The notes under the pieces were generated by a model. That model was not told the origin of the DNA and did not search any database. It worked only from the letters and a program-made list of their open reading frames with translations. Of a stretch of DNA of 64,000 nt, positions 6,538 through 48,653 are shown piece by piece. Every line of letters begins with the position of its first letter. The stretch's first letter is position 1. The position numbers and the translations under genes were made by a program. Source of the stretch: Cyanophora paradoxa CCMP329 (taxonomy: Eukaryota; Plantae; Glaucophyta); assembly GCA_004431415.1 (NCBI GenBank), contig QPMI01000516.1:1-64000 (forward strand), in the 5' to 3' direction.

Positions 6538-6548
6538 TCCCAATATAG

Positions 6549-9403: not shown

Positions 9404-9407
9404 GCTG

Positions 9408-10793: not shown

Positions 10794-11431
10794 GGTGATG
10801 TTCGACAAGTCGGGGGCCGTCCAGTCGCTGATTTCTGAGATGGTGTGCTGGTGATCTGCGTGGGGGTACGTGCTCGGCTTCCCCGTGATGTTACCCCACG
10901 CCCAAGTTGCTGGAATTGTCGGTATCGTCGGCCTCCCTTTTAGATCTTGGTACTCTCCTGTATGCGCCACGGCCGCCAGCTGCGGTACGGCGACGCCCAC
11001 GGTACTGATGGCCTGACTGGGCCCCGAGGGCACGTGCCACTCGTAGTTCTGCGCCGCAAACACGGGCTGACCGGGCGAGGGTGCCCAGTACTCGACGCCC
11101 TTGGCGATTGTTTTATTGTAGGGTGCCGCCGGTCTGTCCATCAATTTATCGACGTACCCCTTGGGCACGAGCCAGTTGGCCTTGGGGCTCTGCGTCGCCA
11201 CGCCGTTGTCGATGTAGGTGCCGTAATTTCGAAAGGCGCCCGGCTCCCACCACTCCTGCATCTGGAAGCGATCGGGCAGCTCGATGCGCGCGATGGTGCC
11301 GGGGAGGCGCACGATGCGCTTGTTTCCCATGTGGTAATCGCGCTCGTAGATGATCGCGTTGCCTGGCCCGCCGCCGCCGCCGATGGGCGGAAGGGGCAGG
11401 AGGGGCGGAAGGGGTGGGAGGGGCGGGATAG

Positions 11432-12293
11432 CTAAAATCTCTTGCATTAGCACACAACACAACTACAATGAGTTTCACATCGCCCAATAAATCTCTCCGA
11501 CTAGATACTATCGAGGACCGTCGTATGCTGTGCTTTAGAAAGTACAAAATGAACGAAAGGTTTGAAGGGTTCGTGTCTAGATATCTAGCTAAGGAGGTTT
11601 CTAACTAATACTAATGATGTGGAAGCTAGCTGTATCGATTTCTAAACCAACCTAAACTCCCGGCTACGAGGTCCTATCTCTACAAAAGACTCCCAATCAT
11701 GGTATGTCCGCCGCCAGCGCTGCCCAAGGGCCTCGCCGCGCCGTGTGCCAGGCTCCTCGCCAGCCCCAGTAGATTGGGCTACTGGCCGCCTCCTGCCGTC
11801 GCCTCCGCCGCCTCCATTTGTTGGTGTTGCGTCCTCCGGCCCCGCCCCAGACCGCAATCCCCCAGTGTCTCCCTCTAGCGCGGGCGCGCCCTCTGTGTGC
11901 CCACGCCCCAAGCATACCTGTTCGTATGGTCGTATACTTGCATGGCCGCTGAAGCCCGGACCCAGCCGTAGTCGTCTGGCGGGCAGCTCAGGTGTGAGAG
12001 GGCTAGGGTTTCCCCGCCTTGGTGGCGGGACTCGAGGGCACCGCACTCCCTGCAGCGTTCCCGCTGCCGGGGCTCCGGATCCGCGCGCTTCCTGCGAGCG
12101 TTGCCAGCCGTATCGTCAGGCGGCGCGTCGGCCTCGCGCCCGCGCGCCTCAGTGCGCTTCGCCTTGGCGCGACGTTCTTTCATGACCTTCGTGATCCCGC
12201 ACGCCTTCTCCCACTCCGCGTACGCCTGGCATCTGGCGGCCCACGTTTTATGGGCCTGCTCGCCTATGGCCGTCGTCAGCTTGCGCACGACCT
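11432..12293 (-). mobile_element. 5'-truncated non-LTR-retrotransposon-like insertion flanked by a 38-bp direct duplication
   Basis: 11394-11431 equals 12294-12331 with one mismatch. The insert holds an ORF tail (KTWAARC.AYAEWEK...CRECG...H) followed by AT-rich non-coding DNA. Confidence 0.65.
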
Positions 12294-20057: not shown

Positions 20058-20899
20058 TTACACGAGCTTTACGGCGCCCGTCTCGAGGGCCTCTACCGTC
20101 TTCGTAATGTACAGCTGCAGCAGATCCTTGAGGTTGCTCTGCGGTAGCAATTTTACGTCTACGTGCATCTGCCTGGCGGTTTCTCGCTTCCTGTAGCCCG
20201 TCTCCTTGCCCGTCCACTGCATGCCGAGGGCGTCCTTTCTCCGTATCGGGCGCACCGCCGTCTTCTGGTACTCCTCTCCGAACCAGTCGTCCTTGTAAAA
20301 ATTCGGCAGGCCGCCCTGCCCCTCCGTCCGCATGAAATCGATGAGGAAATCCGACGCCCGCTTGCCGTCGAATTGCACGCGCGAGTAGTGCACCAGCGTG
20401 AGCAGGATGTGCGCGTGTAGCCGCCCCGACCGCGGCCCGTACTCGATGCCGATGTTCGCGTTGCCCCTCTCCACGTGCGTATCGTACTGGTCGGACTTGA
20501 AATCGAAGCCCTTGGGGTTCGCCTTGTCGGGGTACACCCCCATCTTTATGCACCGCGCCAGCTGCCTGTCGTCGTAGAAGAGGGCCTCCAGCCCCTGTGA
20601 AAGGCGTCCTGCACCTTGGAGCCTTCTCCCCTGCTCCGCGGCTTGTAGTTGGTCTGGATGGTGATCATGAAATTCGACTCGCGCTGGGGCCGATCCTCTC
20701 CGTTCAGTTTCCTCACGGGCGCCGCGTCCAGCACCTTCTGGAACCACGTCTTGTCGGGTGCCAGCACCTTGTCGTTGATGTTGCCCACCACGATGTGAGT
20801 CTCTACCCGGGAGCGGCCGGAGGCGTCCATGCGGAGGTGCGGGTTCGGGGCGCGGGCTTGCCTGTTTGCTGCTACGCCCCTCGCGATGAGGTTGAGCAT
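20058..20899 (-). CDS. HUH-superfamily (rolling-circle Rep-like) endonuclease, one frameshift near 20595
   Basis: Motif I FMITIQTN, motif II EYGPRSGRLHAHILL, motif III YITK; the frames join by adding one G to a G-run. Confidence 0.85.
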
Positions 20900-21119: not shown

Positions 21120-21947
21120 ATGGCGGACTCTGGCGAAATCGATCTCCTGCTCCGAAACTTCGAGCAGATCCAGCGCTACGGCGCCATCCTTCACGACGAG
21201 GGGGACCCAGACTTCGACACTCCGGCACCGTACCCCGCCGCCGCCGCCGCCATCGCCAACTCCTACCTCGGGGCCGGAGAGCGCCCCCGCAAGCGCAACC
21301 GCCGCACCCAAGGCCCCCAAGGCGAAGCCGCTGTCCCCTGCGGAAATTGCGGCTCTACCGCCCTCGTTGGTGTTCACCTGGATGGGGATCTGGTTTGCCA
21401 AGGCTGCGGTCTGGTCCTGGATTTTTATTATCCGGACCATCAACCCCTGGCTGTCAGCGAGCTCCACAGCAACTACCTGCGGAAGTACCACGTATCTGAG
21501 CGACTTAAGCAGCACTGCCTGGAGGATTCTCCAGTACCCGAGGACGTGCTGGCAGCTATTGCGAGGCGCATGGCGGGAAGGAGTGGAGCAAAGACAATAT
21601 CCGCCAAGTTCTCCGGGCTCTGAAGCAGCAGAAGTACATCGAGCGCTGGGCGCAGATCAAGTGGCGCATCACGGGCGAGCGCCCGCCTCCGATGAGCGCG
21701 GAGGACATGGACCGGGTGCAGGAGATGTTCGCCCTGGTGGAGGTCCCTTCAGCATCTTCAAGTCGCAGGGCAGGAAGAACATGCTCAACTACAACTACGT
21801 CTTCAGGCAGATTTTCGTGCTGCTAGATTTGCCCCAGCACCTCCCTTTTTCCCCTTGCTCAAGAGCAGGCAGAAACTCTCGGAGCTGGATTCCATTTGGA
21901 ACAGGATATGCGAGTACAACGACTGGCATTTCTTTCCTACTCTTTAG
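21120..21947 (+). CDS. Viral late transcription factor 3 (VLTF3-like), three single-base frameshifts
   Basis: CGNC..VCQGCG zinc ribbon, YLRKYHVSERL, IRQVLRALKQQKYIE, RKNMLNYNYVF, FPLLKS.KL..D.IW.RIC when the frames are joined at ~21580, 21745 and 21850. Confidence 0.9.
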
Positions 21948-22704: not shown

Positions 22705-23775
22705 TCAGGCGAGGCCGCGGTGCTTCCTGAAATTATCTATCATGCCCAGGAGCGTCTTGTCCACCGTGCCGTCGTCCGGACCCACGAGATTTTCTCCGTT
22801 GACGGTTTCGCCCTCCCAGTACTCCTTGGATCCGATGCGGAAGGGGGGCGGCTCCTCGGCCTTGTAGACGTAAAGGACGTCCAGAGGGTTCGTAGAGTTG
22901 TTGGAAGAATCGATGATAAGGCAGTGGTTATCCTGCGTGTACTTGTCGAGCAGGTAGTAGAAGGCGCGCTGGGATATGATGTCGCCCCACTCCTTTGCGA
23001 GGGCCTCGCGCTGCATCGCCTGCGAGCACTTGAAAATGACAGCCAGATCAGTATTGGAGCGCAGGACGGGATTGATGCCCTTGGCATACTGCGTCGTGAT
23101 AAGGGTCATGATTTTGTAGTGGCGCCCCGCCACGAACAGCTCGTTGAGGGCCTCGTCGTACCGCAGCCGAGCGTCGGAAATCACGTCGTCGAGCAGCACG
23201 AAAAATCGCGGGTCGACGGGATCCTCCTTTCCCGCCAGCACGTCCTCGGACTTGTTGTGCTGCATGATCGCCTGCTGCCTTCTGAATAAGTGGAAGAGCA
23301 CGCCCGGGTTGTACTTGGGCCAGATGAAGCGCTGGGGTATGTACTGCTTCCAGTACCCGTTCAGGCGATCGGTCTGGCTGATCACGATACCCCCGGGGAA
23401 GGTGCCCGAGAGGTTGAACATGAGATCGCGGAGGAAGAAGGACTTGCCCGTGCGCCGCTTGCCGACGCAGACGACGGTGGCGTCGGACTTGACGGTGTTC
23501 ACGTCGAACCACTTGAGCTCGGGCAGGCAGGCCATGCGCTCGATGCCGCCCGTCTTCGAGTTGTCGAGGAAGGCGTTGACCTGCTCGGGCGTGAGCTGCT
23601 GGCCGTCCTCTGTCATGCCCATGGCGCAGCTGGCGCCGGCGGCGGGGGCCGTGCCCGCGCCCGTGCCGGTGGCCTGGCCCGCGGCGGGGGCGGGGGCCGG
23701 GGCGGCGCCCTGGGGCTGGGCGGCCTGGGGCTTGGCCGCCTTCGGCTTCTTCGGCTTCTTGGGGTCTTTGGCCAT
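22705..23775 (-). CDS. A32/FtsK-like DNA packaging ATPase
   Basis: GKRRTGKS Walker A, FVLLDD Walker B, GRHYKI..ITTQY..P.LRSN.D. Likely ATG at 23775. Confidence 0.95.
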   Translation of the reverse strand: MAKDPKKPKKPKAAKPQAAQPQGAAPAPAPAAGQATGTGAGTAPAAGASCAMGMTEDGQQLTPEQVNAFLDNSKTGGIERMACLPELKWFDVNTVKSDATVVCVGKRRTGKSFFLRDLMFNLSGTFPGGIVISQTDRLNGYWKQYIPQRFIWPKYNPGVLFHLFRRQQAIMQHNKSEDVLAGKEDPVDPRFFVLLDDVISDARLRYDEALNELFVAGRHYKIMTLITTQYAKGINPVLRSNTDLAVIFKCSQAMQREALAKEWGDIISQRAFYYLLDKYTQDNHCLIIDSSNNSTNPLDVLYVYKAEEPPPFRIGSKEYWEGETVNGENLVGPDDGTVDKTLLGMIDNFRKHRGLA

Positions 23776-23812
23776 TTTACCCCCTTCATTCAGATTTTCT
23801 TGTGACCTCGGA

Positions 23813-24289
23813 ATGAAGATTCTCGGCGTGGATGTGGGGGTCATTAATTTCGCCTGGTGCCTCATCGAATTCGATCCGCAGACAAAGGAATCCCAGATTC
23901 TCGACTGGCAAAAGATCGCCCTCTTCCCGTCTGCGCGCTGCTGTGGCCGCCTTGTGGCGCGCCTGGTTGAGGTTACTCGCGGCCATAGCGCCTTCGGCCT
24001 TCCCGACCAGATCGCGATCGAGGGCCAGAGGACGGGAATTAATCGCTGCATCGAGTGCACGCTCCACGCCCTCCTGTACGGGCGTGCGCGGATCGTGAGC
24101 CCGCGCGCCATCAAGCATTTCTTCAAGATCTCGAACCCGAGCTACAAGGAGCGCAAGCGCGGCGCCGTGGACAAGTGCCGCGACCTTGTACCCGCCGAGC
24201 TTGCCGATATCGCGGATCGCAACGGCAAGCTCGACGACCTCTGCGACGCCTACTTAATCGCCCTCTACGCCGCCCTCAATCCGTTGTGA
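23813..24289 (+). CDS. RuvC-like Holliday junction resolvase (poxvirus A22 type)
   Basis: MKILGVDVGVINFA, IAIEGQ, YKERK, KLDDLCDAYL. Confidence 0.9.
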   Translation: MKILGVDVGVINFAWCLIEFDPQTKESQILDWQKIALFPSARCCGRLVARLVEVTRGHSAFGLPDQIAIEGQRTGINRCIECTLHALLYGRARIVSPRAIKHFFKISNPSYKERKRGAVDKCRDLVPAELADIADRNGKLDDLCDAYLIALYAALNPL

Positions 24290-27941: not shown

Positions 27942-29324
27942 ATGGCTTCCGCGCTCATCTCCACCCCCACGACCGCCCTGCACCACTCGCTGCGCAGCTC
28001 CGACGCGTCGATGCACGTGCACGAGACCTTCGACACGGCGATGCCGTTCGTGGACGAGGTGCTCGAGGTGAGCCCCGTGCAGTCGGGCGTGGGCTTCGCC
28101 CAGACCGTCGACATCGTCATCCCGCACTCGGCGCCGATGTTCAACGACTCCTGGCTCAAGGTGACGCTGCCGGCGCTGACGAACGCGGACCACTTCTACA
28201 TCCCTAAGGCCGGCTACGTGCTGCTCAAGAACGTGAAGATCTTCGTGGGCGCGCAGCTGATCCACGAGTACACCGGCCACCACGACGCCATCTACGGCGA
28301 GTTCGAGGACGACAAGTCCGTCGTCCAGCACGTCGACATGGTGAACAACCTCTGGGCGCACCAGCCGCTGCGCCGCCGGGGCAAGGCCCCGAACACGCTG
28401 TACATACCGATTCGCATCGCGACGGGCCACGGTCGAAAGTTCGCCGTGCCGCTCCACAAGCTCCGATGCTCCGGAAACGACATGAAGCTGCAGATCACCT
28501 ACGCCTCGCAGAAGGAGATCACGGCCTCGTACGTGGACGGCGGCCTGCACACGAACACCAACCTGGCGGGCGTTACGGGAAGCACCGGCCTGGACACCAA
28601 GCTCATCCTGCGCTACGTGCACATCGACTCGCGCGAGCTGGCGCTGCACCCGAACTCGTTCACCTGGGCCGGCAAGTACGTGCAGCACTACCACGTCTCG
28701 TTCGAGTCGGGCAAGGCCATCCGCCTGCCCTTCACCGGAATCTGCTACGAGCTGATCATCGTGGTGCGCGACAAGCCGCACACCGACAACGGTGAGCACT
28801 TCTGGCGCTTCCGCCCGCTCGACAAGATCGAGCTGAAGTGCGACAACATCAAGGTGCTCGACAGCTCGAACCACGACGCGCACTTCCTGCGCACGGCCAT
28901 CGCGCACAAGGAGCACACGCACGCCCCCGCGCGCAAGCACCTCGAGCTGCTGCGGGGCGTGACCTCGATGGACGGGACGGCGGCGGCCGATGTGGCCGAC
29001 GCGCTGCACCCGCACCCGTGGTCGGGCAACGACACGCCCCCCACGACCCTCGCGACCCACGACGGCCACAGCAGCGACATCCAGCCCCGCAACGTGGGCC
29101 AGTTCGGGACGGAGTTCATCTACTCGCTCCCCTTCGGCACGGACGTGGCCGACAACACCAAGATGTTCGGCGGCCTCGACATGGGTGCCTTCAAGACCAT
29201 CGAGCTCACGCTCACCACGCTCAAGACCTACACGTCGGAGGCCAAGCCCGTGGCCGACATCTACTGCCGCTACTACAACGAGATCACCTTCACCAACGGC
29301 GGCGCCTACCGCCGCTTCCATTAG
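27942..29324 (+). CDS. Major capsid protein (divergent double jelly-roll)
   Basis: GFAQTVDIVIP..WLKVTLPAL, LLKNVKIFVGAQLIHEY, LYIPI, VPL, FIYSLPFG, GGLDM, YNEITFTNG follow the NCLDV MCP pattern; strong C/G third-position bias. Confidence 0.9.
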   Translation: MASALISTPTTALHHSLRSSDASMHVHETFDTAMPFVDEVLEVSPVQSGVGFAQTVDIVIPHSAPMFNDSWLKVTLPALTNADHFYIPKAGYVLLKNVKIFVGAQLIHEYTGHHDAIYGEFEDDKSVVQHVDMVNNLWAHQPLRRRGKAPNTLYIPIRIATGHGRKFAVPLHKLRCSGNDMKLQITYASQKEITASYVDGGLHTNTNLAGVTGSTGLDTKLILRYVHIDSRELALHPNSFTWAGKYVQHYHVSFESGKAIRLPFTGICYELIIVVRDKPHTDNGEHFWRFRPLDKIELKCDNIKVLDSSNHDAHFLRTAIAHKEHTHAPARKHLELLRGVTSMDGTAAADVADALHPHPWSGNDTPPTTLATHDGHSSDIQPRNVGQFGTEFIYSLPFGTDVADNTKMFGGLDMGAFKTIELTLTTLKTYTSEAKPVADIYCRYYNEITFTNGGAYRRFH

Positions 29325-31768: not shown

Positions 31769-32551
31769 CTACTGCATGGGGGCTGTGTACATAGACTCGG
31801 GGTTTAGGTAGGGCTCGAAGCTGGCCTCGTTGTCGTAGGGCCTGAAGGCCAGCTCGGGCGTGCGGCCTGCGAAGCGAAAGGCGCCGACCTTGCACTGCTG
31901 CACGGCGAGGAAGGACCACTTGAGGCCGAACTTGCCCTCGGGGATGGCGTAGGCGGTGTCGATTTTAACGAGGGCGGCCACCAGGTCGCCGGTGCCGATG
32001 GTGGCGCGCTCGGTGATGAGGTAGTTGGACATGTCGACGACGGGGATGGTCTTGCGCTTGCCCGCCATCGTCTGGGTGCGGATGCGCATGTTGAGGTACT
32101 TGTAGAAGGCCTGGCCCGACTCCTTGTCGACCTTGATGCGCACGCTGGGGGTCTGCAGCACCGAGATCTGGTCCTTGGAGAGGGAGCGGCCGGGCGAGAC
32201 CTTGAGCTTGGCCTGGTTCTGCTGCACGAACTCGCAGAATTTCGCGTCCAGGGCCTCGAGCAGCTTGAGGAACTCGTCCGCGGCGGGGTTCGTCTGGCCG
32301 TCGACGGCGCTGAGATCGGTGAGGTCCAGCGTGTAAAATCCGCCGTTTTCTTCCATGACGAAGGCCTTCTTCTCGTCGCTCCACGCCTTGCCTTGCTCGG
32401 TGTTGATGCAGGGGTTGATGGTGACCATGGGCGGCGCGTACATCATGAGGCCCTGCAGGCCGTCGTACTTGGCCTTGATGCGGCCGGTGGCGTCGATCTC
32501 GAAGGCGAGCTTGGCGGGGTCGATCTCGGTGGCGCTGCGGACGGTGGCCAT
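31769..32551 (-). CDS. Single-stranded DNA-binding protein (NCLDV OB-fold type)
   Basis: YTLDL...FLKLLEALD...GDLVAALV...KFGLKWSFLAVQ. Confidence 0.7.
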   Translation of the reverse strand: MATVRSATEIDPAKLAFEIDATGRIKAKYDGLQGLMMYAPPMVTINPCINTEQGKAWSDEKKAFVMEENGGFYTLDLTDLSAVDGQTNPAADEFLKLLEALDAKFCEFVQQNQAKLKVSPGRSLSKDQISVLQTPSVRIKVDKESGQAFYKYLNMRIRTQTMAGKRKTIPVVDMSNYLITERATIGTGDLVAALVKIDTAYAIPEGKFGLKWSFLAVQQCKVGAFRFAGRTPELAFRPYDNEASFEPYLNPESMYTAPMQ

Positions 32552-32661
32552 GGTTGCGTTAGCTTAGAGTGTGCTTCAGCCTAAGGCTAGAAAATATTTG
32601 AGGTCGCCCCGCCCGACTTCAGCTGAGCGCTCAGGTGATTCAGGTAAAACACGTGTTCAAT

Positions 32662-32946: not shown

Positions 32947-33054
32947 TCTCTCGTTTGCTGGCCGATAAAGTGTGAGGAAACGAGGCCCCGCGCACCCTCT
33001 TAAGGCCCCGCGTCAGGTGAGCGTCGGGTGAAGCCAGAAAACACGTGTTCAATT

Positions 33055-33528: not shown

Positions 33529-33633
33529 GTTGCCTGCTGGTTGCGTTGAGAGAGATTGAGAGTGTGAGGGGAACGCAGCGTGCCGCGCGCTTATAAAGGC
33601 CGTTCAGGTGAGCGCTCAGCTGAGTTTCAGGTG

Positions 33634-33704
33634 AGGGCAACTTGAAAATTCGGCGTCATTTACGTCCGCGTCATTTACGTCAGCGTCATTTACGTCACGG
33701 AGTT
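33634..33704. repeat. Third copy of the (GCGTCATTTACGTC)x3 block
   Basis: Direct match to 34484-34534; ~70-bp inverted match to 34886-34955. Confidence 0.92.
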
Positions 33705-33791
33705 GGGACTCGGCCCTGGCCCCGGGCCCAGGCCTCGCCCGTAAAAAAAAGGACTTGGACTTGGCGCCATTTTCTAAAGCTCTGCTGTACC

Positions 33792-34175
33792 ATGGAGCCC
33801 GCCATCTCCCAGCTAGTCTCCCAGGGCGCCAAGCTCGACAAGGCCCTGAACATCTACCTTCAGCTGATCGAGCTGGCCTGGCCCGAGCCAATGATAGCTC
33901 AGGCCTGCAAATCGCTCCACGTGGCGTTCGATGCGCCGTTCTCAGGTGACCCGGATCAGGTGACATCCTGGACCAAGGAGGAGATAAAGGCCGACTTCGA
34001 GGCGCTTTTCTCATTTATGAGCAAGAAGTATGCCGAAATCGAAGCAGCTAAGGCCTCAGCAGCCGAAGGCGGTGAAGCCCCAGCCGAAGGCCCTGCCGGC
34101 GACGAAGGCACCGAAGTTCAAGGCGCTGGGCCCTCTGCAGAGGGCGAAGGCCAAGGCAGACCTGCGTCCGTGTAG
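33792..34175 (+). CDS. Hypothetical protein between repeat copies
   Basis: ATG 33792 preceded by TTTTCTAA. Confidence 0.6.
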   Translation: MEPAISQLVSQGAKLDKALNIYLQLIELAWPEPMIAQACKSLHVAFDAPFSGDPDQVTSWTKEEIKADFEALFSFMSKKYAEIEAAKASAAEGGEAPAEGPAGDEGTEVQGAGPSAEGEGQGRPASV

Positions 34176-34483
34176 CCCCAAGGAGATAGCCAAGGAGGCC
34201 AGCAGCCACAGGCCCGACTGGCCGGCGCCGGCGCCCTACCGCTACCTCAAGCTGGACAAGAGCAACGATACGGGCTTCACCAGGAGGAGGTGGCCTGAGC
34301 CCCTCAGGTGGCTGGAGCCAAGGGAGATCAAGTCCGGAGGCGGTATCGAGCTAGCGCTAGCGCTGGGCGGCGGCGGTGCAGACTTGGAAGAGCAGGCCCT
34401 GCTAGATACCATCAACTTGGGCCAGGTAGAGCTGTGATATCTAGCTAGCGCTAGCGCTTGCTGAATTAATTAACCGAAGGGTC

Positions 34484-34936
34484 GCGTCATTTACGTCCGC
34501 GTCATTTACGTCAGCGTCATTTACGTCACGGAGTTTGCCGGCGACTCGGGACCTGGGCCAGGGCCCGGGGAAAAAAATTCGAGACTTGGAAAAATAGGGT
34601 ATCCCTATTATTTATCGTTATTATTATTACTATTATCGTTATTCACATTGAATGAATGCTTAAATCTATAAAAGGTGTACCGGTACCGGTAGCTAGTAGT
34701 ACTGAGCAAGTAGTACTAAGTAGTACAGTAGTAGTACTAAGTAGTACAGTAGTAGTACTAAGTAGTACTACGTAGTACTAGCGGTACTAGTAGCTACTGG
34801 TACTAGCGGTATTAGGGATACCCTATTTTTCCAAGTCTCGAATTTTTTTCCTCGGGCCCTGGCCCAGGTCCCGAGTCGCCGGCAAACTCCGTGACGTAAA
34901 TGACGCTGACGTAAATGACGCGGACGTAAATGACGC
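34484..34936. repeat. 124-bp inverted repeat with a 205-bp AT-rich/AGTACT-repeat spacer (candidate origin or fused termini)
   Basis: Arms 34484-34607 and 34813-34936 with one mismatch; spacer has 21-bp tandem units and the palindrome TAGTACTACGTAGTACTA. Confidence 0.95.
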
Positions 34937-35007: not shown

Positions 35008-35298
35008 ATGGACTTCACCGATTGCGCAGGTATCAAGCAGGAGCCTGAGGACCTTCTCTCCGTTGCAGCCGCCTCTGCACCGAAGCAGCGCCGCCGCCGC
35101 GGGCCCAAGTCCCTTAGCTCCGAGCCCGAGATCCTGGCGACGCCGGCGCGCGAGCCCGAGGCCGTTGACCTGACCGCAGAGGAGCCCGCGCGCGGCCCGC
35201 CGCGCCTCCTGATCCTGGCCGCCGCGGCCGCCGCGCTCTACTACGCCGCCCGGCGCCTGGGCCCGCAGCTCTCGGGCCTGGCCCGGAACCTTTTCTAA
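35008..35298 (+). CDS. Small protein with C-terminal hydrophobic helix
   Basis: ATG 35008 after ATTTTCC; LLILAAAAAALYYAA. Confidence 0.55.
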   Translation: MDFTDCAGIKQEPEDLLSVAAASAPKQRRRRGPKSLSSEPEILATPAREPEAVDLTAEEPARGPPRLLILAAAAAALYYAARRLGPQLSGLARNLF

Positions 35299-36743: not shown

Positions 36744-37221
36744 CTAAATGACCAGGCCGCGCAGGTACCAGACCATCAGGAGCGAGCCGCCCAGCGCCAC
36801 CAGCAGCGGCAGGTGCCCGTCCACGGCGCGCCGCATGCGGTTGTCGCACAGCTCCTGGCAGCTCAGCCGGTTGGCATCGTCGAAGTAGGCGCTCACGGCG
36901 TAGGGGCGGCCGGCCGGCGGGTGCAGCCCCTGGCCCAGGCACGGGTAGGCCTCCGCCTGCCGCCGCGCGGCCAGCGCCGCCGTCGCCGCGTGCGCCGCCT
37001 CCCTCTGCCCCGGCGCGATCGCCACGAGGGCAGCGCCCCCACGCTCCTGCCCTTGCCCGCCCCTTGATCGTTTTCAGCGACGGCGGCGCGGGATCCGCCG
37101 CCTTCACCCTGGGCCCCTCCGCCGCCGCCCCGCCCTTAGCCCTCGCCGCCTCGCCGATCTTGCTGCATCGCGAATCCGATTTGAACACGGTGCACAGCAG
37201 CTTCTCTACCGCGCTCGACAT
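36744..37221 (-). CDS. Cys-containing membrane protein, frameshifted near 37030-37060
   Basis: Start of ORF 36703-37221 plus C-terminal frame 36744-37025 ending in a TM helix. Confidence 0.5.
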
Positions 37222-37316
37222 CTTCGAACGTGTAACGAGAATGAAGAAAATTTAAAAGGGAACGCCAACGGACTCGGAACTCGGAAAAGGGGGAGGGGAG
37301 AATGAACTTTGAAATG

Positions 37317-37505
37317 TTAGCGCCCGGCGGGGCGCATGCCGGCCGCCGCCTGCGAGGCGCCGCCGGGGGCGTAGAGGGACTTGGCGGCGTAGCCGAAGCC
37401 CACGCCTATGACCGCCGAGGCCGTGGGGGTGCCGCCGAGGAGCCAGGTGAGGGTCGCGGCCAGCGCTCCTAGCGAGTAATGGGCAGGATAAGCTTCGAAG
37501 GCCAT
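37317..37505 (-). CDS. Small two-TM membrane protein
   Basis: MAFEAYPAHYSLGALAATLTWLLGG...; TTTTTTCTCA upstream. Confidence 0.6.
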   Translation of the reverse strand: MAFEAYPAHYSLGALAATLTWLLGGTPTASAVIGVGFGYAAKSLYAPGGASQAAAGMRPAGR

Positions 37506-37564
37506 CGCGGGACCGAATTGAGGGAGGGTTGAGAAAAAATACCGCCTCGGGGGCCTCGGGGGCC

Positions 37565-40500
37565 TCAGTGGTGCAGGTGCCGGAAGCGCGCCTGGTCCTC
37601 GGCCTCCTCGCGCGCCGCCTGCTCCTCCGCCGCGTCGATCTCCGCCCGCGAGGCCTCCAGCGCCGCGGCCGACGCGTAGTCCTTGAGCACGGGCACGCGC
37701 CGGTAGCTGTAGCCGAGGCCCTTCGCCAGCCCCGCCGACTCCGCCTCGAACGCCCGCCAGCGCTCCGAGGCTTCCGCGCCGGCGATCTGGCCGGCGCGGA
37801 AGCCCGCCTCCAGCTCGGCGCGGAAGGCGAGGGTGCGCTGGAGGCGCTGGGCCCAGAGGCCCTGGCGCCGCTCCTCCGCCTCGCGCGCCTGGCGCGCCGC
37901 CAGCGCCTGCCGCTCGGCCTCCTGCTGGGCCCCGAAGCCCTGGATCGCGGAGAGGACGGCGCCGGGGCCGGGGAGGGGGACGGGGCTGCGGTCGGCGAGG
38001 GAGAAGGGGACGGGGCTGGGGCCGGCGCTGCTGGAGGGGGCGGCCGAGGCCGAGCGCGCACGCGAGCCCAAGGCCGAGCGCGAGCCCGAGCTGCCGTAGC
38101 CGCTGGGGCCGGCGCCGCCGTCCACGGGGCTGCTGCGGAAGCTGCCCGCGGGGGAGGCGCCCTCGCCCTGGCCCGAGGGTCAGGAGGGGGGCGGGGGAAA
38201 GGGGGGTACGGGGAGGGCGCGGGTGCGGGGCCGGACCTGGCGCGGCAGCATCTCGTCGATGCGCTGCTGGCCGGCGTGCTGCTGGGCGGCGGGGGCGAAC
38301 GACGGGGGCGGGGGCGGGACGAAGCCGGGGGCCGAGTTGCGGGCGCGCTTGCCCCTGCCCCTGGTCGAGGCCTTGACGGGGAAGGGGCCGATCTCCGGGT
38401 CCGCCGGCAGGGTGAAGCGGATGGCCTGCAGGGCCGGCTGGCTCGCGCCGAGGGAGAGCGGGGCCTTGGGGACGATGCCGCGGATGTAGGTCTCCCAGAC
38501 GCCGCCGGCCTTGTAGGAGAAGAGGCCGCACTTGGGGCCGAAGGCGGCGATGGTCTCGTCCAGCGCGCCGTTCTCGATGTCGGCGGCGAGGGCGGCGGAG
38601 GCGTCCGGGCCCTCGGTGCGCGAGACGTACTCGCAGATGCCCGCCACGCTCGTCATGCCGCCCTCCGTCTCCGAGCCGACGAGGTAGGTGGTGGGGTCGA
38701 CGACGCAGTGGGTGATGATGAAGCGGGTGAGGGAGCAGGAGGCCGTCTCCTGCCAGAAGGCGAGGCGCTTCTCCCGCAGCCACGCCGGCTCGAAGGCCTG
38801 GATGCACGTCGCCTCGCCGTCGGAGAGCGCGTGGATGATCTTCCAGGCGTAGGTGTAGGCCACCACGTTCAGCGCCGGCAGCTCGTTCTCGCGGATGTCG
38901 GCCTGGAGGTGGGTGCGCTTCTTGAGCGGCTTGTGGTCGAGCGTGATGAGGACGATGCGCGAGAAGAACTCCAGCATGCGGTTCGCGAGCTGCGCGTGGG
39001 AGGGGTGAGAAAGGAAAGGAAAGGAAAAGGAAAGGAGGGGGGCGAACCTGGGGAAAGCCGTTGCAGACGATCACAAGCGACTTGCGCAGGGGCCTGCAGC
39101 GCCGGTCGTTGCCCTTCGCGAACTTGAAGTTGCGAGCGTAGGCGTCGCCCGAGCGCATCTTGAGCTCCTCCTCCGTGCAGGCCTTCGGGTCGAGGCCCTC
39201 CGCCATGATCATGCAGAGCGCCTCCTCGCCGCCGTGCTCCGAGAAGGCCGAGCCCCTGGAGGGGCGGTAGACGCAGATTTGACCCGGCGCGTAGCACTCG
39301 TTCATGATCCCCGTCACCGTCGACTTGCCTGCGCGCGCGGCCGCGGCGTCAGAGAGAAAGGGAAAAGGAAAGGAAAGGAAGGGGGCGCACCGGTGCCAGA
39401 CTGGCCCTTGATGACGCCGCAGTACTGCAGCTGGGCGCCCTCCGCCGGCGCCTCGAACTCCGCGCGCGGCGCACGGTCGAAGACGGGCTTGTCGCAGAAG
39501 TGCCACGGCCCGACGGTGTTGAAGGCGTAGAGGACGGCCGCCGCGTACCCGATCTCGTCCGGCGTCACGTAGCCGTTGTCCGCCAGGTGCTGAGCGCACT
39601 TGGGCATGTGGCCGATGAGCATGGAGAGGACGCGCGGGAAGTCGACGTTCGCCGCCGCCTCCTCGATGCCGTCCGGCAGGCGGCCCTGGATGTAGCAGGT
39701 GTTCATGTAGCCCTTGTACCGCTTCTCCGCCACCTCGTGCGTCATGATGAGGACGCAGGCGTCGCCGTTCTTGTCCTGCGGCGTCCGCACAACGAAATCT
39801 GCGCAAGGGAGGGCATCAGGGGGGTGCCGACCGGGAGGGGTAGGGGGGTACGGGGCGCACGGGAGTCGCAGGCGAAGGGGTGGCCCGGGATGACGGGCAT
39901 CTCGGGGCAGACGTCGTGGAGCAAGAGAGACTTCTCCACGAATCGGCGGATCTCCCCCGTGAGCACCTCCTTGGAGAAGGTGAACTCGAACAACTCGGGC
40001 TTGTCACCGTACGCGGCGTGAAAGGCCATCGCCAGCTTCGAGATCACCTCGTCCATCGTTCCGTTGCCGTCGAACTGCGTTGCGGTGACCTTCTCGTAGA
40101 CGAAGCAGCCCGGCAGCTTCTGCATGAAGACGGGGTCCTCCCCGGGGGCCATCGGCCGCTTGCGTGCGATTCCCTGCGGGCGCGGGCAAAAAGGGCGTTA
40201 GCGGGGCTCGATCCAGGGGAGGGGGGCGCACCGGCCGGAGGCGGCCAGCGCCTTAAGCAGCTGGGCCACGGCCGCCTCCGGCCTCTAAGGGGGCGGGCGC
40301 GCAGTCAAAGGGGCGCACCGACGCAGAAATCCAGGCGCGCAGCGAGTCCTGGATGGCAGCCTTCTTGCGCGCCATGTTGTCGTCCTTGTGCGTCGTCACT
40401 CGTTCGTACCGGCGCGTGTTGATCACCGGCGCCGGGATGACCGTCGCCGCCAGCTCCACCCGCGCCAGCTCCAGCTTGTTCGCGCGCGGCGGCTCGTCGT

Positions 40501-41146
40501 CGCTTGCCGTCTCCAGGCCCTCGTCGTAGTCCTTCTCCGCCCCCGCCTCCCGCCGCTGCCGCTGCCGCTCCTGCCGCTCGCGCTCCTTGCGCTGCTGGGC
40601 CCGGCGGGAGCGGGGCGCGGAGCGGGGGGCCGGAAGGGCAGGAGGGGCCGGAGGGGCCGGAGGGGCCGGAGGGGGCATGTGGGCCGGCGGCGGGAGCTGT
40701 GAGAGGCGCACCGGGCTGAACTCCCTGAACGCCGAGGGGTTGCCGCTCGGGCGCCAGGAGACGTCGGAGGCGGCGGGGCTGGCGGGGGGCACGGGGGCGG
40801 GCGGGCGGCGGGGGGAGACGAGGGGCGGCCTGGGGCCAGCGTCGCCGGGCTCGTCGTCCGAGAACTCCTCCACGGGCGGCGGCGGGGCGTACTCGAGGGA
40901 GGGGGAGGGCGGGAGGGGGTAGAACTCGTCGACGGGGGGCTCGGGCTCGAAGGTGTCCCCCGCCGCCGCCGCCGCCAGCTCGGCGTCGGCCTCGCCCTCG
41001 CGCTCGCGCTCGCGCTCCAGCTCCATCGCGTACTCCTCCGCCACCTCCAGCTCGCGCGCCGCCTTCGCGTCCGCCGCCGCCGCCAGCGCGGCCTCCTCCT
41101 CCATCTCGCGCTCGGCCTCCAGCTCCTCCTCTGTGGGCAGGGTCAT
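37565..41146 (-). CDS. Intron-containing SF3 helicase (6 predicted introns); may be fused to the upstream gene
   Basis: GT..AG introns at 40261-40318, 40174-40231, 39799-39860, 39329-39390, 38990-39047 and 38168-38236. Splicing gives GQSGTGKST, MIMAE, VIVCN and FFSRI. The junction at 40174 needs a 1-nt correction. Confidence 0.8.
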
Positions 41147-41174
41147 TCCTTTGCGGCGCCGGAACGCCCTAGGC

Positions 41175-42868
41175 TCAGAATTTTGGGGTGGGGAGGGCGC
41201 ACCGGCCGGCTCGGGCCGGCCGCCTTGGGGCCGCCGCCTCCATCTGCTCGCCGAGATCGCGCCGCGCCGCCGGGGCGGGCGCGTCCTCCTTCTCGAACTT
41301 GAGGTTGATGTAGGCGACCTTGCCCTTGCCCTTGCCCTTCGCCTGGGCCTGGGCCTGGGCCACGCGCATGGCGCGCGCGAGGCCCTCCGCCGTGATCTTG
41401 CTAACTCCGGCCCCGTCGCCGGAGGCGGAGGCCGTCGCCTCGCCGATCGCCGCCTGGAAGGCCGCGGCCATCGCCCGGCCGGCGCGCGGCAGGCTCCGCG
41501 CCCGCTCGAGCTCCTCCTCCGTGAAGTCCAGCGCCCGGGCCGCGGCGGCGGCCTCGGCGTCGCGCTCCTCCTCGGAATCCGAGCCGGAATCCGAGGACTC
41601 CGTGGCCGCGAGCATGGGGCGGGGGCGGGAGGCGGCGGCGGCGGCGGCGGCGGCCGCCTTGTCGAAGACGGGGACGAAGAAGGCGAGGGCGAGGGTGCGC
41701 CGCGGCACCACGTACTTCACGGCGCCGTGGATCATGGGGCGCCCGTGCGAGTCCGGCATCGAGCACCGCCGGATGACCTGCGAGGGGGTTTAAATGGCAT
41801 CTAAATAGTCTAAATAGCATCTAAATAGTCTAAATAGCATCTAAATAGCATCCAAATAGAAACGGCACACCTGCACGCGGTCGCCGATGGTGACGCCGGG
41901 CACCTCGAACTCCGGAACCAGGTCGAAGGCGCAGATGCCCTGGCGCCCGTGGCGGTCCCGGCACGTCCGGCAGGCCGCCTCCAGCACGATGCGGATGGCG
42001 TAGGCGTCGGTGAGGACGCCGGTGTCCGGCCGCTCGCCCCAGACCGCCGAGCTCTCGTGGCGCGTGATGAAGTCGCGGCTGTTCTGCTTGATGCAGCGCA
42101 CCTCGATGCCCATGATGCCCTTCGCCAGCATCTGCGGGCCGGCGGGGGTCGGCGGGGAGGGGCGGCCGCGGCTGCGCGGGCGGCTGGGGCGCACCTCGGG
42201 CTTGTAGGCCGGGTCCGAGCTGAGCACCAGCAGCCAGAGCAGGTGCCCGGCCGCCTCCGCCATGCGGTTGAAGTAGAACTCCTCCGGGCCCGTCAGCAGG
42301 CCAATCGTGCGCCACTCGCCCTTGGCGATGTGCCGGGGCACGGCGCCCATGAGCAGCCGCAGGCGCTGCGCCGCGAACAGCCGGCGGGCGTCGGCATCGC
42401 GCCCGGGCTTCGGCTTGCTCGGCGTGTCGAAGTTCTCCTCCGTCATGTTCAGCGCCGCGTGCATCGCCCGCACGTCCGCGTCCTGCGATGCGCCGCGGCG
42501 CCTCAGCCGCTGCGAGCGCAGAGAGAAAGAGGCAGCGAGCACCTCCGCGAGCCGCAGCCGCGACAGGACGGAGTCGATGGAGAACTGCACCGACGGGCCG
42601 GGGGCGCCCTCGAGGTTCAAGGTCCGCGCCGCGGCCAGCTTGCGCTTGCGCTCGGCCAGCTCGGTCTTGCGCAGCACATCCTTGCTGTTCGGGCTGAACT
42701 GCATGCCGTCCTCCAGCGCCCGGGCCTGCGCCTCCTTTGCCTGGTCGCTGATGCCGGCCTCGAAGACCGTCCAATCGATGCCAAAGCTGTCGCCGATGCA
42801 GAGAACGTCGTACAGCGTGTTCCTCGCCAGCTTAGCCGGGATCTCCGGAGGGAGCGCGAGCCGAGACA
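41175..42868 (-). CDS. Intron-containing hypothetical protein (possibly the N-terminal part of the helicase gene)
   Basis: Introns 42132-42194 and 41778-41870 join the ORFs in frame; a 34-nt GTGCGC..AG intron at 41169-41202 would fuse it in frame to ATG 41146. Confidence 0.65.
41791..41859. repeat. CTAAATAG(CAT/T) minisatellite inside a predicted intron
   Basis: About seven tandem TAAATAG-type units. Confidence 0.85.
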
Positions 42869-43209
42869 TGCTGCCGCCGCTGCTGCTGCCGCCGCTGCTG
42901 CGCGCGCTCTGCTGGGAGTGCTGCGCGCGCTGCGAAGGTTCTGGCGCCAAGTTCCCAGCCGATTTGAACGAGCGGCCTGCATTGCATCGCCAGAGAGAAA
43001 AAGCGAGAAACCGACGGGGGGTTGCAGCCTGGGGGGGTACGCGATTTTGAGGGGGGGAGAAGCGCGCTTCAAGTCTGAGTCTTTGCGAGTTAGGGGGGGA
43101 AGAAGTCAACGGGGGAATAAACCGTGAACGGAATCCGTTGAGACGTTGTTGTGAACCCCGCGGGCACTAACAGCTGCGCACGTAGTTCGTTAAACCCGTC
43201 TGCCGCACC

Positions 43210-45729
43210 ATGCAGGCGGCGACCTTCCGCTCGTGCGCGAAGCAGCAGCAGCCCGGCGAGCAGGACAGCATAGCCCGCGATCTCGGCAGCCTGTCAGCGG
43301 AGGAGGCGCTCAACGCGATGACCTACGATAGCGTGTTCAACTCGGCCGGCGTGCCGCGCTTCGAGCCGTTCGGCGGGCTGAAGAAGATCCAGAACACGGA
43401 CGGCCACCCGAAGCACTTGAAGACCAAGGGCCAGTTCACGCCGGTTAATAAGTTCAACGAGGTTCGCGGTTTCGCCCGCACCGCTTCGGCCCCGGCTCAC
43501 ATGCCCCGGCTCGCGTGCCCCGCGCGCAGATCGTGCCTTACAGCATTCACGAGCTGCCGGAGTATGTGAAGGCGAAGTACGGCTTCACGCACGGCGATGT
43601 GGCGCTGTTGCTGATGTCCGACAATGCGGCGGCGGGCTGCTTCAACAGCATCGCGCTCCATCGCGATTTCCATCCGCGCGCGATCTTCTCCGGCACTCCG
43701 GAGCAGAAGGAGTTCCTCGCGGACCTCAAATCCGGCAGCGGCGGCGCCCACGGGGTGAGGGCCCTTCCCTGCGCTCGCGTGCCCGCGCTTGCTCACGCGC
43801 GGGCCGCCGCAGCTCTTGATCGCGCGGGATCAGTGCCTGGCGTCGGTGACGGAGAAGGAGAAGGCCAGCCCGTCCGGCCTCGGCGTTCGGTGCGATTACG
43901 TCATCGTCACCAAGCGCATCAACCCGACGTACGCCAAGAAGTACGACCTCAACTTCGTCTACGTGAAGGAGGGGCCGCCGGCCTCGCAGTACACCGTCAC
44001 CGTCCAGGCCGGCATCTGCGCCGGTGAGACCATCCAAGGCGCGTACCACGGCGTCGGCACGCTCCCGTCCGGCGGCTTCTTCGACGTCGTTGATCACATG
44101 TTCCTCTCCTGCGCCGATGACATTTACGTGCGCGAGAGCCCGCCCTTTCCCCTTTCCCCTGCCCCTGCGCGCGCTAAGGTCGCGTCCGCAGGTCGGAGAG
44201 AACCCGAGCGCGGAGAGCCCGCTGGGCTACGCGTACTGGCTGGTCAGCGTGCAGAAGGTGCTCTCCTGCGCGGCCCTTCGGAAGTACGCCAGCGTCTGCG
44301 ACTCCGGCATGCGGCCCCAGCTCCAGCTTCTCGTGGATCAGGGCCGGAGCGACGAGGCCCGCCAGCGCCACCGCGATCTCGCGCGGGCGGCCGTGCTGAA
44401 GCTGGAGGAGGTTCTGCGCGAGGGCCACCCAAACGGGCCGGCCCGCGCCCGTGAGATCCTCTCGGTGGCCATCTCCGTGATCGTCGGCGAGCTCTCGCAC
44501 ACGGTCCGCCGCCGCCCCGCTTAGCCCGCCTCTCCTCCCTGACCCCGGGCCCTCGGAGCGCAGGAGGAGTCGGACGTTCTCACGGCGCGGGCGGACGAGT
44601 TCCAGCGCCAGGCGGAGAAGATCAAGTGCTGGTACGAGAAGGTGAAGAAGGCGGAGGAGACGGACCTGCGCGACTGGGGCAGCAAGAGCGGCGACGCCGA
44701 ATTCGACCGCGACAAGCTCAAGCGCGTCTTCTACTGGATGCGCATCTGCGCCAAGCTGGAGGCGCTGATGGACGAGTGGCACATCGAGGGCGTCCGTCTG
44801 GCGAAGGCGATGATCGCCATGGAGTGGGGCCACGGCCACCCGGCGCGCAAGGAGTGCAGCATGCTGGCCAAGGAGATCGGCCGCCGGGCCGCTACATCAA
44901 GGAGGTGGCCTACGGTATCGAATGTGCGTCCGCCCCGCCCTTGGCCTGCGCCCCGCCCTTGGCCTGCGCCCCGCGCTCTCCCCGCTCACCCCTCTCCCGC
45001 AGTTACCATCCCGCTCGTCCAATTCTTCCAGCGCGAGTTTGTGCTGATCCAGGCCTCCATCATCAAGATCGGGTCGCTCTCCGCCAAGGAGGTGGACGAG
45101 GCAAGGGACGAGGGCCAGGCGGAGGCGGAGGCGCGCTGGGACGATGCGGCGTTCAGCGCCGTCTGGGGCGTCGGGGACAACGCGCTCTCGCCCCCGCCCC
45201 GTTCGGCTTCAGCGGGCGGCCCGCGCTGGCGTTCGACGAGCACGGCCTCCCCGAGCTGGCGGAGGCGGACGCCGTCGGCTTCAACTGGGCGACGTTCGAG
45301 GCCCGCATCGACGAGAAGGCGAAGGAGGCGCAGATGCGGCTGCTGGAGGAGGGCCTCGTCCCGGCGCCGGTGCCCGCGCCCTTCCCCCTTCCTCTCCTCC
45401 TCGGCCCCTCTCACCGCCTCCTCCAGCCCCCGGCGTCCTCGGCTCCGGCGTCCTCGGCTCCGGCGTCCTTGGCTCCGGCGTCCTTGGCTCCGGCGCCCTC
45501 GGCCCCGGCCCTCTGCCCCACCTACGGAGAGAGGTGTGCCCACCGCGCCGATTGCGCCCTCAACGGCTCCCACCTCCTGCCCGCCAAGAAGGCCCGCCTC
45601 GGCCTCTTCTCACCCCACCCTCTCAGCCCGGTGAGTGACTCTGAATCGGAGGGCTCGGAGGCCTATAGCACGCCCCGCGACCCCGACGCCCCGCCCCACA
45701 AGGCCGGCGCCTTCGGCTTCTGTGAGTGA
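43210..45729 (+). CDS. Intron-containing protein of unknown function (at least 5 introns)
   Basis: Introns 43462-43529, 43755-43812, 44128-44191, 44504-44563 and 44924-45002 link successive ORFs; apparent 1-nt indels at ~44880 and ~45190; 3' end uncertain. Confidence 0.7.
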
Positions 45730-46302
45730 CGCCCCCGCGCAGGCCCTCTCGGCGCCGCCCGTCGCCAACCGCGCCGCCTTCGTCCAGGTGAGTGCCCGGG
45801 CTGCCGCGAGTGGCGGCTCGAGAACTTCTCGGCTCAGGTCCCCGCCACGCAGCAGGCCGGCGCGATCCCGGCCTCGCCGCCCGTGACCGTCGACGTCGAG
45901 GGCGGTATGTTCGAGATGGAGCTGGAGCCGGCGCCCTCGCAGGCCCTCGCCACCCAGGGCTCGGCCCCGGGCTCGCCGCCGCCGTCCCAGCCCTCCCTCC
46001 CCTGGTGCACGCCAACTCCAACATCTTCGAGGGCTGCTGAGGGCCCTGAAACGGTGCGCGCAGGCCCGTCCCGCCCTCCCAGAGCAAGTGGTCCACAACG
46101 CCATAGTGGACGCCATGTGGGATAACAGGGGCCGCCTCCCCCACCCCTTCCGCTACGTCTCTATGGCCCTCCGCGGCCTCGCCTTCCCGCCCCCCTGCAC
46201 CGAGCAGCTCAACCAAATCCTGCGCGGTCTGATTCATTACAGACTCGCCTACCCAGCCTGGGCCTGAGCTACACCAAGCTACGGTGAGTCCGACCAAGAG
46301 AC

Positions 46303-46354
46303 GTGTCCGGACCCTCCCTACTTTCTTTATAGATTATTGGAAAGGTCCGGACAC
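46303..46354. terminator. Hairpin with AT-rich loop between convergent genes
   Basis: GTGTCCGGACC ... GGTCCGGACAC abutting the YqaJ stop codon. Confidence 0.5.
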
Positions 46355-47010
46355 TAGAGGAGGGCGTACGACTTAAACTCGCGCAGCGCCGCCTGCTCCT
46401 CGCTGAGGTTCTCTGACTTCATTCGATCGCTGTAGGGCTCGGGCGGCGTGCCCTCCTTGACGTGCATCCAAAATAGATGTAAGCACTTCCTCATGAGCTC
46501 GATGTACCTCTCGTCGCGCCTGACGTACCACGTTTGCACGCGCAGAGGAGTGAAGCAAAAAAGTTCGGCCCACTCGCGGCCCGTGATGTCCAGAAGTCCT
46601 TGTAGTTGGGGCATGTAATAAGTAGGAACTTTATCGTACAGTTCGCCCTTGTACGGGCATTTCACCTCTAAAATTCTATCATTTCCTATAAGTCCGTCGG
46701 GACTACCGGCGAGGAACGGCATTTCTTTATGTTCGTGCAGTCCAGTATGTTTCACGTCCACGTTATTGTTCAGTGCCTTGTAGATAGAGACCGCGAGGGG
46801 CTCATAGTCATGCCCATAGGTTAGGGCAGGGTTGTCAAAGTTGTTTTCCTCCGCTATCCCGCTTAGCTCCGCCCAGAGGCGGGCCCTGGATTTCCAGGGA
46901 TTTATGCCGCACGCAGCCGCAAAGTTCGAGGCAGTTAGCTTTTCGCGGCGCGCCGCGTGCCACGCCGCGCTCCCCTGTTGCAAAGTCTCGCAATCTGTAT
47001 CGGTATGCAT
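46354..47010 (-). CDS. YqaJ/lambda-exonuclease family recombinase (PD-(D/E)XK)
   Basis: QGSAAWHAAR..LTAS, GHDYE, LAGSPDG, LEVKCP, YYMPQLQ. Confidence 0.93.
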   Translation of the reverse strand: MHTDTDCETLQQGSAAWHAARREKLTASNFAAACGINPWKSRARLWAELSGIAEENNFDNPALTYGHDYEPLAVSIYKALNNNVDVKHTGLHEHKEMPFLAGSPDGLIGNDRILEVKCPYKGELYDKVPTYYMPQLQGLLDITGREWAELFCFTPLRVQTWYVRRDERYIELMRKCLHLFWMHVKEGTPPEPYSDRMKSENLSEEQAALREFKSYALL

Positions 47011-47060
47011 AGCTTAGCCTCGCAGTGGCGTTTAGAATTTCTTGATGTGTGCAATTGCAA

Positions 47061-47758
47061 ATGTCCGATGCAGAGGAAGCGCCCAAGGACGTGATCGCAC
47101 AGTTCATAGATCAGGTCAAGGACCTTAGACGCTGGGTGGTAGAGCAGGCCTCGCGACCGAATCGACAGCGCCAACCCTGGCCGGTGCTAGAGCTGGCCCG
47201 GGCAGGGTGGCTAGACACGCATTACAACTCTGGCGGGGCCCTTTACGTTCGGAGCCACGACGAGGGCAGGATTATCGACGAGTTCAAGCGCATCTGGTTC
47301 GCCCTGGGCTCCAAGCTCAGCATACTCTCGACCCTCCCGGACCACATTCGCATGCAAATCCTCGAGTGGTACGCGAAGGCAAGGGACTCGCAATGGGACG
47401 ACGTAAATTTGCGCGACCTCTCGCGCTTGCGCTCGGCTGTGACGGCGTATGTCACAAACTATGATTATCACGTCAAAAAGCCCCAATTCGAAGTTGAGCC
47501 AATTCCGATGAATCTGGTACCCCTGGGATGGGAAGAGTACCCCGAGTACTCGTGGAACAGGGGCCTCAACCCCCGCGCCAGGCCCTGCCAGCCCCGCCCG
47601 CCCCACCGATAAACGGCCCCGCCCCGCGTGACGTCAGACGGGACATACGCGAATGGGAGGAGTGGAGCAACGACCCGAAGAACTGGCTACCCGGGGAGGC
47701 GGAGCTGCGCAAGCGCGCGAGGCTGATGCCCGGCGACAGGTACCCCGACCGCGAGTAG
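47061..47758 (+). CDS. Hypothetical protein, probable frameshift near 47590
   Basis: ORF 47061-47612 appears to continue in frame 47528-47758; divergent from YqaJ. Confidence 0.5.
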
Positions 47759-48561: not shown

Positions 48562-48653
48562 TGTCCCGGGTCCCTGGAATCTTAATATAAATTTTCCGGG
48601 GACCCGGGACACTCCCGGTCAGACGATTCTTCAATTGGGGGTTCAATTGGGGG
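48562..48653. repeat. 18-bp stem hairpin with TCTTAATATAAATT loop, followed by tandem TTCAATTGGGGG x2
   Basis: Arms 48562-48579 / 48594-48611 (one mismatch); direct repeats 48630-48641 and 48642-48653. Confidence 0.9.

Follow-up and report, generated by a model that had tools for sequence, protein, structure and literature searches.

An inverted repeat within a mriyavirus-like virus endogenous in Cyanophora paradoxa, possibly an internal replication origin with enhancer

Mriyaviruses and other systems with comparable elements

Among living viruses, Mriyaviricetes have been proposed as the nearest kin of giant-virus ancestors, and HUH-driven, rolling-circle replication has been proposed for them from gene content, according to the sections of PMC11253617 covered here. 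In the passages considered, two HUH genes mark the gamadviruses (PMC11253617; 10.1101/2024.02.29.582850), and the structure named by Yutin et al. for the mriyavirus HUH protein is that of SIRV1 ORF119 (PMC11253617). Within the 45 rows covered out of the 60 mriyavirus representatives (PMC11253617, supplement 2), at least seven are marked as having direct terminal repeats, which means that they map as circles, at least one is marked as ITR and at least one as “palindrom”; none of the 21 gamadvirus rows is marked. The passages and the table of that paper covered here name no origin and no internal repeat. The literature searched, with most subscription journals outside it and preprint supplements that may hold genome maps, contained no paper on the origin, the termini or an internal repeat of a mriyavirus.

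Regions related to Mriyaviricetes have already been reported in a glaucophyte assembly (10.1101/2025.04.19.649669, in the part covered), and giant-virus-like insertions are already known in Cyanophora paradoxa (PMC12344493, in the part covered): what is new here is the cis elements. According to a 2026 framework, mriyaviruses have no integration genes (10.64898/2026.06.19.733378), and in the covered part of 10.1101/2025.04.19.649669 Nucleocytoviricota-related insertions without such genes are suggested to be mostly accidental. In the present case the gene order is the same in dozens of copies, which also seem to end at a common point on the right.

The locus described here is an inverted repeat at 34484–34936 of the window, i.e., the whole stretch of 64,000 nucleotides that was analysed. 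It is a real, virus-encoded cis element, new in its detail, whose role we infer from its anatomy. This 450-bp element and its 11-nt box are defined substrates on which the resolvase and both HUH proteins of the virus could be assayed, and the origin, the genome topology and the integration route become testable in a cultured alga.

The passages considered for four other virus groups allow a comparison. Rudiviruses have linear genomes with ITRs (PMC5062984), and SIRV1 and SIRV2 carry the same pair of Rep and Holliday junction resolvase as this virus, whose predicted HUH structure has SIRV1 ORF119 as its top match; rudivirus dimer junctions, however, are perfect palindromes centred on the terminal hairpin, unlike our locus with its asymmetric spacer and unique flanks. 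For a poxvirus junction to be resolved, an inverted repeat has to lie between two resolution sites (PMC8956199). The poxvirus junction shares with our locus inverted arms, conserved boxes and A/T tracts around an AT-rich core, with an A22 homologue in cis, but here no inverted repeat lies about the axis between the boxes (only 64 of the 199 spacer positions pair across it), two-thirds of the spacer has a GC content of 42%, and the flanks are not mirrored. Adenovirus ITRs are similar in length (148 bp) and in the order of their parts, with genome-facing TGACGT motifs that are ATF sites (PMC2794291); unlike them, the arms of our repeat are internal and face each other across 199 nt, and no protein-primed polymerase was found in the element. 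Baculovirus hrs contain palindromes together with CRE motifs and act as origin and enhancer at once (PMC13513840). Being internal, AT-rich and palindromic with CRE-like motifs, they offer an analogy, in role only, to our locus, where one large repeat and a partial copy stand against dispersed 70-bp units, and HUH against IE1. Lastly, HUH transposons (Helitron, IS91, IS200/IS605 and Replitron; 10.1101/2022.12.15.520654) resemble the present element in their fixed ends, end hairpins and many copies, and HUH is the only evident integration candidate in this virus; the difference is that this element has a full capsid module.

The virus that carries the repeat

The repeat belongs to a mriyavirus-like virus of approximately 40 kb, endogenous in Cyanophora paradoxa, which extends from about 9.4 to 48.9 kb of the window. 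Its major capsid protein, of the Nucleocytoviricota type, is encoded at 27942–29324 on the plus strand (PF16903, 30.9 bits, cut-off 24). The capsid search gave eight matches (E up to 1e-10), seven of them from the Cyanophora paradoxa proteome and one a distant protein of 460 aa, and all of the 15 close capsid homologues listed carry EukProt identifiers of one form, which resolved to Cyanophora paradoxa. The A32-like packaging ATPase (22705–24111, minus strand, true start probably internal) matches PF04665 with an E value of 1e-4 and 22.2 bits, just under the cut-off of 22.8, and shares 33–38% identity with the ATPases of 80 viral loci. An ORF at 23264–24289 on the plus strand holds an A22/RuvC-like resolvase in its C-terminal part (PF04848, 30 bits), and a PD-(D/E)XK-type nuclease matches YqaJ (PF09588, 101 bits). 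A TFIIB zinc ribbon (PF08271) was found in the candidate VLTF3, whose remainder is spread over three frames; going by its motifs, we take this remainder to be recognisable and VLTF3 to be probable.

Two HUH genes adjoin each other on the minus strand. The HUH_long-like protein (18061–20040) has C-terminal HUH and YxxK motifs and matches the metagenomic protein P0191 in BLASTP with an E value of 2e-7. The short HUH endonuclease gene (20058–20899), with HUH and YxxK motifs, is broken here into two ORFs (20546–20899 and 20058–20543) and encodes one protein in other copies. P0191 and P0018, encoded on JGI contigs (P0018 on 1363 nt, P0191 on 1459 nt), are metagenomic homologues at 56–63% identity, and their sequences suggest a related virus in the environment. 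The short HUH protein was modelled from its homologue P0191 (54–56% identical), and the model is weak, with a mean pLDDT of 48. SIRV1 Rep ORF119 (2x3g) ranked first for it in VIA (Z 6.8, rmsd 3.4, 99 aligned), with a score tied within 1 Z with unrelated folds, and second in Foldseek (probability 0.99, E 3.8e-3). A PDB sequence search with the HUH alignment gave nothing under E 0.2, and an Atlas search with HUH gave 0.92–0.93 at low recognition, with one Rep family at 18% of members, which is a lead only.

The size of approximately 40 kb, the capsid, the A32 ATPase, the RuvC/A22 resolvase, the PD-(D/E)XK-type nuclease and the adjacent HUH and HUH_long genes are shared with “Gamadviridae” as described in the covered parts of PMC11253617; the differences are the glaucophyte host and a helicase and VLTF2, which were not found here in the 74 plus 40 proteins scanned. 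By gene content, the virus is mriyavirus-like with gamadvirus features. Pfam gave no match to an SF3/SF2 helicase, VLTF2, or a DNA or RNA polymerase in the same 74 plus 40 proteins, misses that weigh little because the genes at 37–46 kb are spliced and frameshifted.

Frameshifts split viral genes at 20546, 21600–21900, 34150 and 37027–47569. At some of these splits one more base is present, at high depth, in the contigs of public runs, and therefore many of the breaks may be assembly errors rather than decay. The window also has single-base indels that are absent from the contigs of public runs; thus, it holds errors or private changes. At 43812–44923 and 45629–45850, contigs of a run guessed to be RNA join across gaps, two of them with GT..AG ends, where the DNA runs cover the stretch. 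These joined contigs are likely spliced viral transcripts, and some copies may be expressed. The same run has no cover in the bin with the repeat, to which we attach no weight, and no listed run is recorded as RNA.

Tandem repeats containing TAAATAG lie at 41791–41859, between two minus-strand ORFs; we take them to resemble the poxvirus late promoter core.

Relatives of this virus were sought at the DNA level. None was found in viral contigs with the capsid, the ATPase, the HUH alignment or two distant capsid proteins, none in metagenome contigs with a flanking gene or the TGACG pattern, and none with the capsid against phages. The box pattern hit four viral loci that have neither proteins similar to those of this virus nor an inverted repeat; we treated these as chance. 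A distant capsid query and the ATPase alignment gave 12, 5 and 80 loci. Across all 101 loci, two had one match each to other proteins of this virus, and there was no convincing HUH motif and no comparable repeat. One of them, L006, has the appearance of an ordinary giant virus, and therefore we consider the 101 loci uninformative on mriyaviruses.

In the contigs of three DNA runs the depth of the virus is tens of times that of the host flank (e.g., 2565 against 61.5 in X1), where contig depth does not equal copy number and one run may be the source of the window itself. The bin with the repeat has depths of 4608, 9153 and 2844 in the three runs, values that fall among those of the viral bins and exceed the host flank 70-fold or more. 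The 24 listed runs are contigs, a format in which molecule ends, fold-backs and the orientation of the spacer across the arms are not visible. Up to about 48,800 the depth remains high, contigs of single depth start at 48853–48862, and at 48850–48892 the depth drops to the level of the host flank. We read this as the common right end of the element: the copies appear to stop at the same point near 48,890, and therefore the repeat is not the integration site. On the other side, the C1q-like gene at 9408 adjoins other viral genes in several copies, and therefore the left end lies at or left of 9408.

The genes flanking the repeat are neighbours (within eight identifiers) at no fewer than 22 of the 32 right-side loci listed, against a chance mean of 0.76 and a maximum of 5 in 2000 draws; similarly, at least 22 of the 30 left-side loci listed have a right-side partner. 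This linkage concerns neighbouring genes in other copies and not the repeat itself. The suggestion of the earlier note that the repeat lies inside the integrated form is borne out, as a viral cis element with linked flanking genes. In a gene stretch close by, 58 of 571 positions depart from the commonest type.

Anatomy of the repeat, its flanks and the left edge

The left arm (34484–34610, plus strand) and the right arm (34810–34936, minus strand) are 127 nt each, complementary at 125 positions (two mismatches), and separated by 199 nt. The arms of 124 bp and the spacer of 205 bp claimed in the earlier note are real and are the same structure, with the cut made three bases earlier. The longest exact inverted match of the repeat is 84 nt, whereas none of 30 block shuffles of the element gave one above 24 nt. 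From outside to inside, each arm is composed of three 15-nt repeats bearing TGACG, a GC-rich middle, A-tracts and a small inner palindrome, the TAGGG-TAT-CCCTA box. Both inner arm ends carry the TAGGGATACCC box followed by TCCAAG, with the boxes facing inward. No arm substitution occurs among the 40 heavily filtered variant rows listed of 993.

The earlier note had described the spacer as half AT-rich and half repeats; the two parts are not equal. The AT-rich part (34611–34677) has 67 nt at 22% GC and is a candidate unwinding element. The AT-richest 60 nt of 9400–48900 start at 34606 (82% A+T), directly beside the left inner box. The AGTAGTACT repeat array (34678–34809, plus strand) follows with 132 nt at 42% GC and an off-centre, imperfect hairpin. 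The whole spacer folds at −36.3 kcal/mol (z −4.8), with none of 200 shuffles equally stable, into a long imperfect hairpin that is off-centre. An Rfam search gave six weak matches, all far below the gathering score, which reflect this hairpin. Cumulative GC skew shows no clear turn at the repeat, and no sigma-70 promoter was found, as expected. Although the repeat was first called the largest non-coding gap of the virus, it is one of the two largest: by plain ORF cover it comes second, with 330 nt against 427 nt (11448–11874), and it spans 570 nt once a minus-strand shadow ORF is disregarded.

The left neighbour gene (33792–34437, plus strand), which is in two frames here and encodes one protein of 215 aa in other copies, stops 47 nt short of the left arm and is directed into the repeat, contrary to the view that most nearby genes point away from it. 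On the right, the TGACG block of the right arm lies approximately 70 nt upstream of the gene at 35008–35298 (plus strand, 96 aa), the first of three plus-strand genes (35008, 35309 and 35677). The actual divergence point of the genes, missed by the earlier note, is a third, decayed arm copy at 33634–33759, which sits 830 bp from the repeat between the genes at 33528 (minus) and 33792 (plus) and forms a divergent promoter. It matches the right arm, extended by the adjoining 19 nt, at 107 of 126 positions, with the TGACG block intact and the inner box absent. Short matches were also found beyond the left arm. The TGACG 15-mer has nine matches, all of them within the three arm copies, where 0.06 would be expected.

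Upstream of the three minus-strand genes behind the third copy (32552–32661, 32947–33054 and 33529–33650) there are common motifs: TCACCTGA, in two cases AACACGTG, and CACACT near the start. To judge from their sequence, they form a candidate early promoter class. The last of these genes (31769–32551, minus strand) encodes a DUF5871/DUF2738-like protein, and proteins of this kind have a role in ssDNA binding. Because the third copy lies in a divergent promoter with these common upstream motifs, the outer arm looks like a promoter/enhancer module. Being internal and between divergent genes, the third copy also suggests that the arm works apart from any terminus. By analogy with the adenovirus ATF sites, factors may bind the TGACG blocks of the repeat.

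A perfect 28-bp hairpin lies at the left edge of the element (8604–8678), at the GC step between a Polinton-like virus and the mriyavirus-like virus. Each of its arms carries TAGGGATACCC and then TCCAAG, with the boxes facing outward. About 0.016 copies of the exact 11-mer TAGGGATACCC are expected in 40 kb, and it recurs in this hairpin together with a second common hexamer; the box was picked out after being seen (post hoc), and with two mismatches allowed the window has four matches against 2.8 expected, which is not above chance. The hairpin may belong to this virus or to the neighbouring Polinton-like virus.

This Polinton-like virus (1–8365, 41–45% GC) abuts the left edge, so that nesting or targeting is possible, and contains primase-helicase pieces, a 1031-aa ORF with an endonuclease VII domain, an rve integrase and a SAM decarboxylase; directly downstream of the SAM decarboxylase gene there is a hairpin with 31-nt arms (8389–8481). 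Three fibre- or minor-capsid-like genes, one with a C1q domain and one with a 66-nt tandem repeat, lie at 8693–11447 and have a GC content above that of the Polinton-like virus.

Readings of the repeat

Starting from the anatomy, the viral context and the gene linkage observed across the site, we tentatively prefer the reading that the repeat is an internal, HUH-driven replication origin plus enhancer of the virus, a function and a topology read from the anatomy. Host bZIP-type factors would bind the TGACG blocks and drive the flanking genes, and the third arm copy would likewise drive the divergent early genes. The viral HUH protein would bind the two inward-facing TAGGGATACCC boxes, the AT-rich 67 nt would melt, and the protein would nick at a box or in the repeat hairpin, so that a template, circular or concatemeric, would be copied by rolling-circle or strand-displacement synthesis. 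Integration would take place elsewhere, at fixed ends, possibly by the same HUH protein at the left-edge hairpin.

The build of an HUH double-strand origin is present, with a hairpin and inverted boxes next to an AT-rich stretch and HUH genes in cis. The internal origin is favoured by the AT-richest 60 nt beside the left inner box and the stable spacer hairpin (z −4.8), by the restriction of the TGACG 15-mer to the arm copies and a third copy away from any terminus, and by the TAGGGATACCC 11-mer in the left-edge hairpin, the two HUH genes in cis and the SIRV1 Rep-like model. The linkage of the flanking genes, the mriyavirus contigs with direct terminal repeats and the baculovirus hr analogy point the same way. 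It is weakened by the count of TAGGGATACCC, not above chance with mismatches, and by a hairpin that is perhaps the Polinton-like virus's. The 98% alike arms, against 58 differences in 571 nearby positions, are a pattern of terminal repeats, and none of the 21 gamadvirus contigs marked circular, a weak HUH model and no GC-skew turn also count against it.

Somewhat unlikely, and next in probability, is a linear virion DNA with the arms as its terminal inverted repeats. Its ends would have been joined in an intermediate, either a circle or a concatemer, which then integrated through some other, fixed site; on this reading the spacer would consist of the unique sequences of the two ends, and the repeat would remain an origin. 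Outward from the spacer, each arm has a short box, A/T tracts, a GC-rich middle and TGACGT motifs, an adenovirus-ITR-like order (PMC2794291, in the passages covered), and near-identical arms with an end motif inward and transcription-factor sites outward are the layout expected of ITRs. Between the arms 2 of 127 positions differ, whereas the third copy has decayed, and the short matches beyond the left arm suggest a formerly longer repeat. Moreover, the HUH protein resembles the Rep of rudiviruses, which pair it with a Holliday junction resolvase in the passages covered of PMC5062984, and the mriyavirus contigs covered include at least one marked ITR and at least one “palindrom”, with 0 of 21 gamadvirus contigs marked circular. 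Against this, every integration would need an extra circularisation step, an internal repeat would probably break short-read assemblies into ITR-ended contigs just as well, and the unique, unmirrored flanks and the 64 of 199 axis pairings are not those of a poxvirus or rudivirus hairpin-telomere junction. Such a concatemer junction, which the earlier note had proposed after the poxvirus model, is not supported: there is no axis-centred near-palindrome, the hairpin being off-centre, and the genes on either side are different. The alternative offered in the same note, an HUH origin, fits the anatomy better. Both the internal origin and the joined termini make the site an origin, and they differ in where the virion DNA would open.

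That the repeat is a promoter/enhancer cassette only, an inverted duplication upstream of the 35008 gene kept by intramolecular gene conversion and with no role in replication, would agree with a TGACG block intact in all three copies and with a third copy that lies in a divergent promoter, next to the module common to three minus-strand genes. This is clearly unlikely, as it leaves unexplained the inner boxes, which the third copy does not have, the AT-rich stretch, the hairpin and the left-edge box, and there is no gene where the left arm would fire outward. We consider it very unlikely that recombination at the arms inverts the spacer, or else the segment of 1.1 kb from the third copy to the right arm, as a switch or a by-product of replication; two nested pairs of inverted repeats and the encoded resolvase and YqaJ-type nuclease would suit it, but no site-specific recombinase was found in the 74 plus 40 proteins scanned. 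An assembly artefact, or the insertion of a host MITE into the virus, is scarcely credible despite the long inverted arms around a non-coding core and the single-base indels of the window. The dispersed host MITE that the earlier note had set against a viral repeat is disfavoured: no target-site duplication is flush with the arms at any of the eight lengths from 3 to 10 nt, the 15 kb of host flank hold no match with an E value below 0.83, depth at the repeat is viral-like (in three DNA runs, 70-fold that of the host flank or more), and a third, decayed copy lies within a viral promoter.

Going further than the preferred internal origin, the duplicated HUH proteins could serve as both replicase and integrase, recognising one TAGGGATACCC/TCCAAG site at the internal origin and again in a terminal hairpin, there for a site-specific, integrase-free insertion of the entire 40 kb; we regard this extension as speculative and unlikely. 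If true, the element would be a rolling-circle transposon that encodes a capsid and is present in a cultured alga in dozens of copies, colinear and in part transcribed.

Near the right end, two related hairpins with GC stems and AT loops lie just 3' of genes (46303–46354 and 48562–48611), and some copies show a joint at the latter. They are possible 3'-end signals or subterminal HUH sites.
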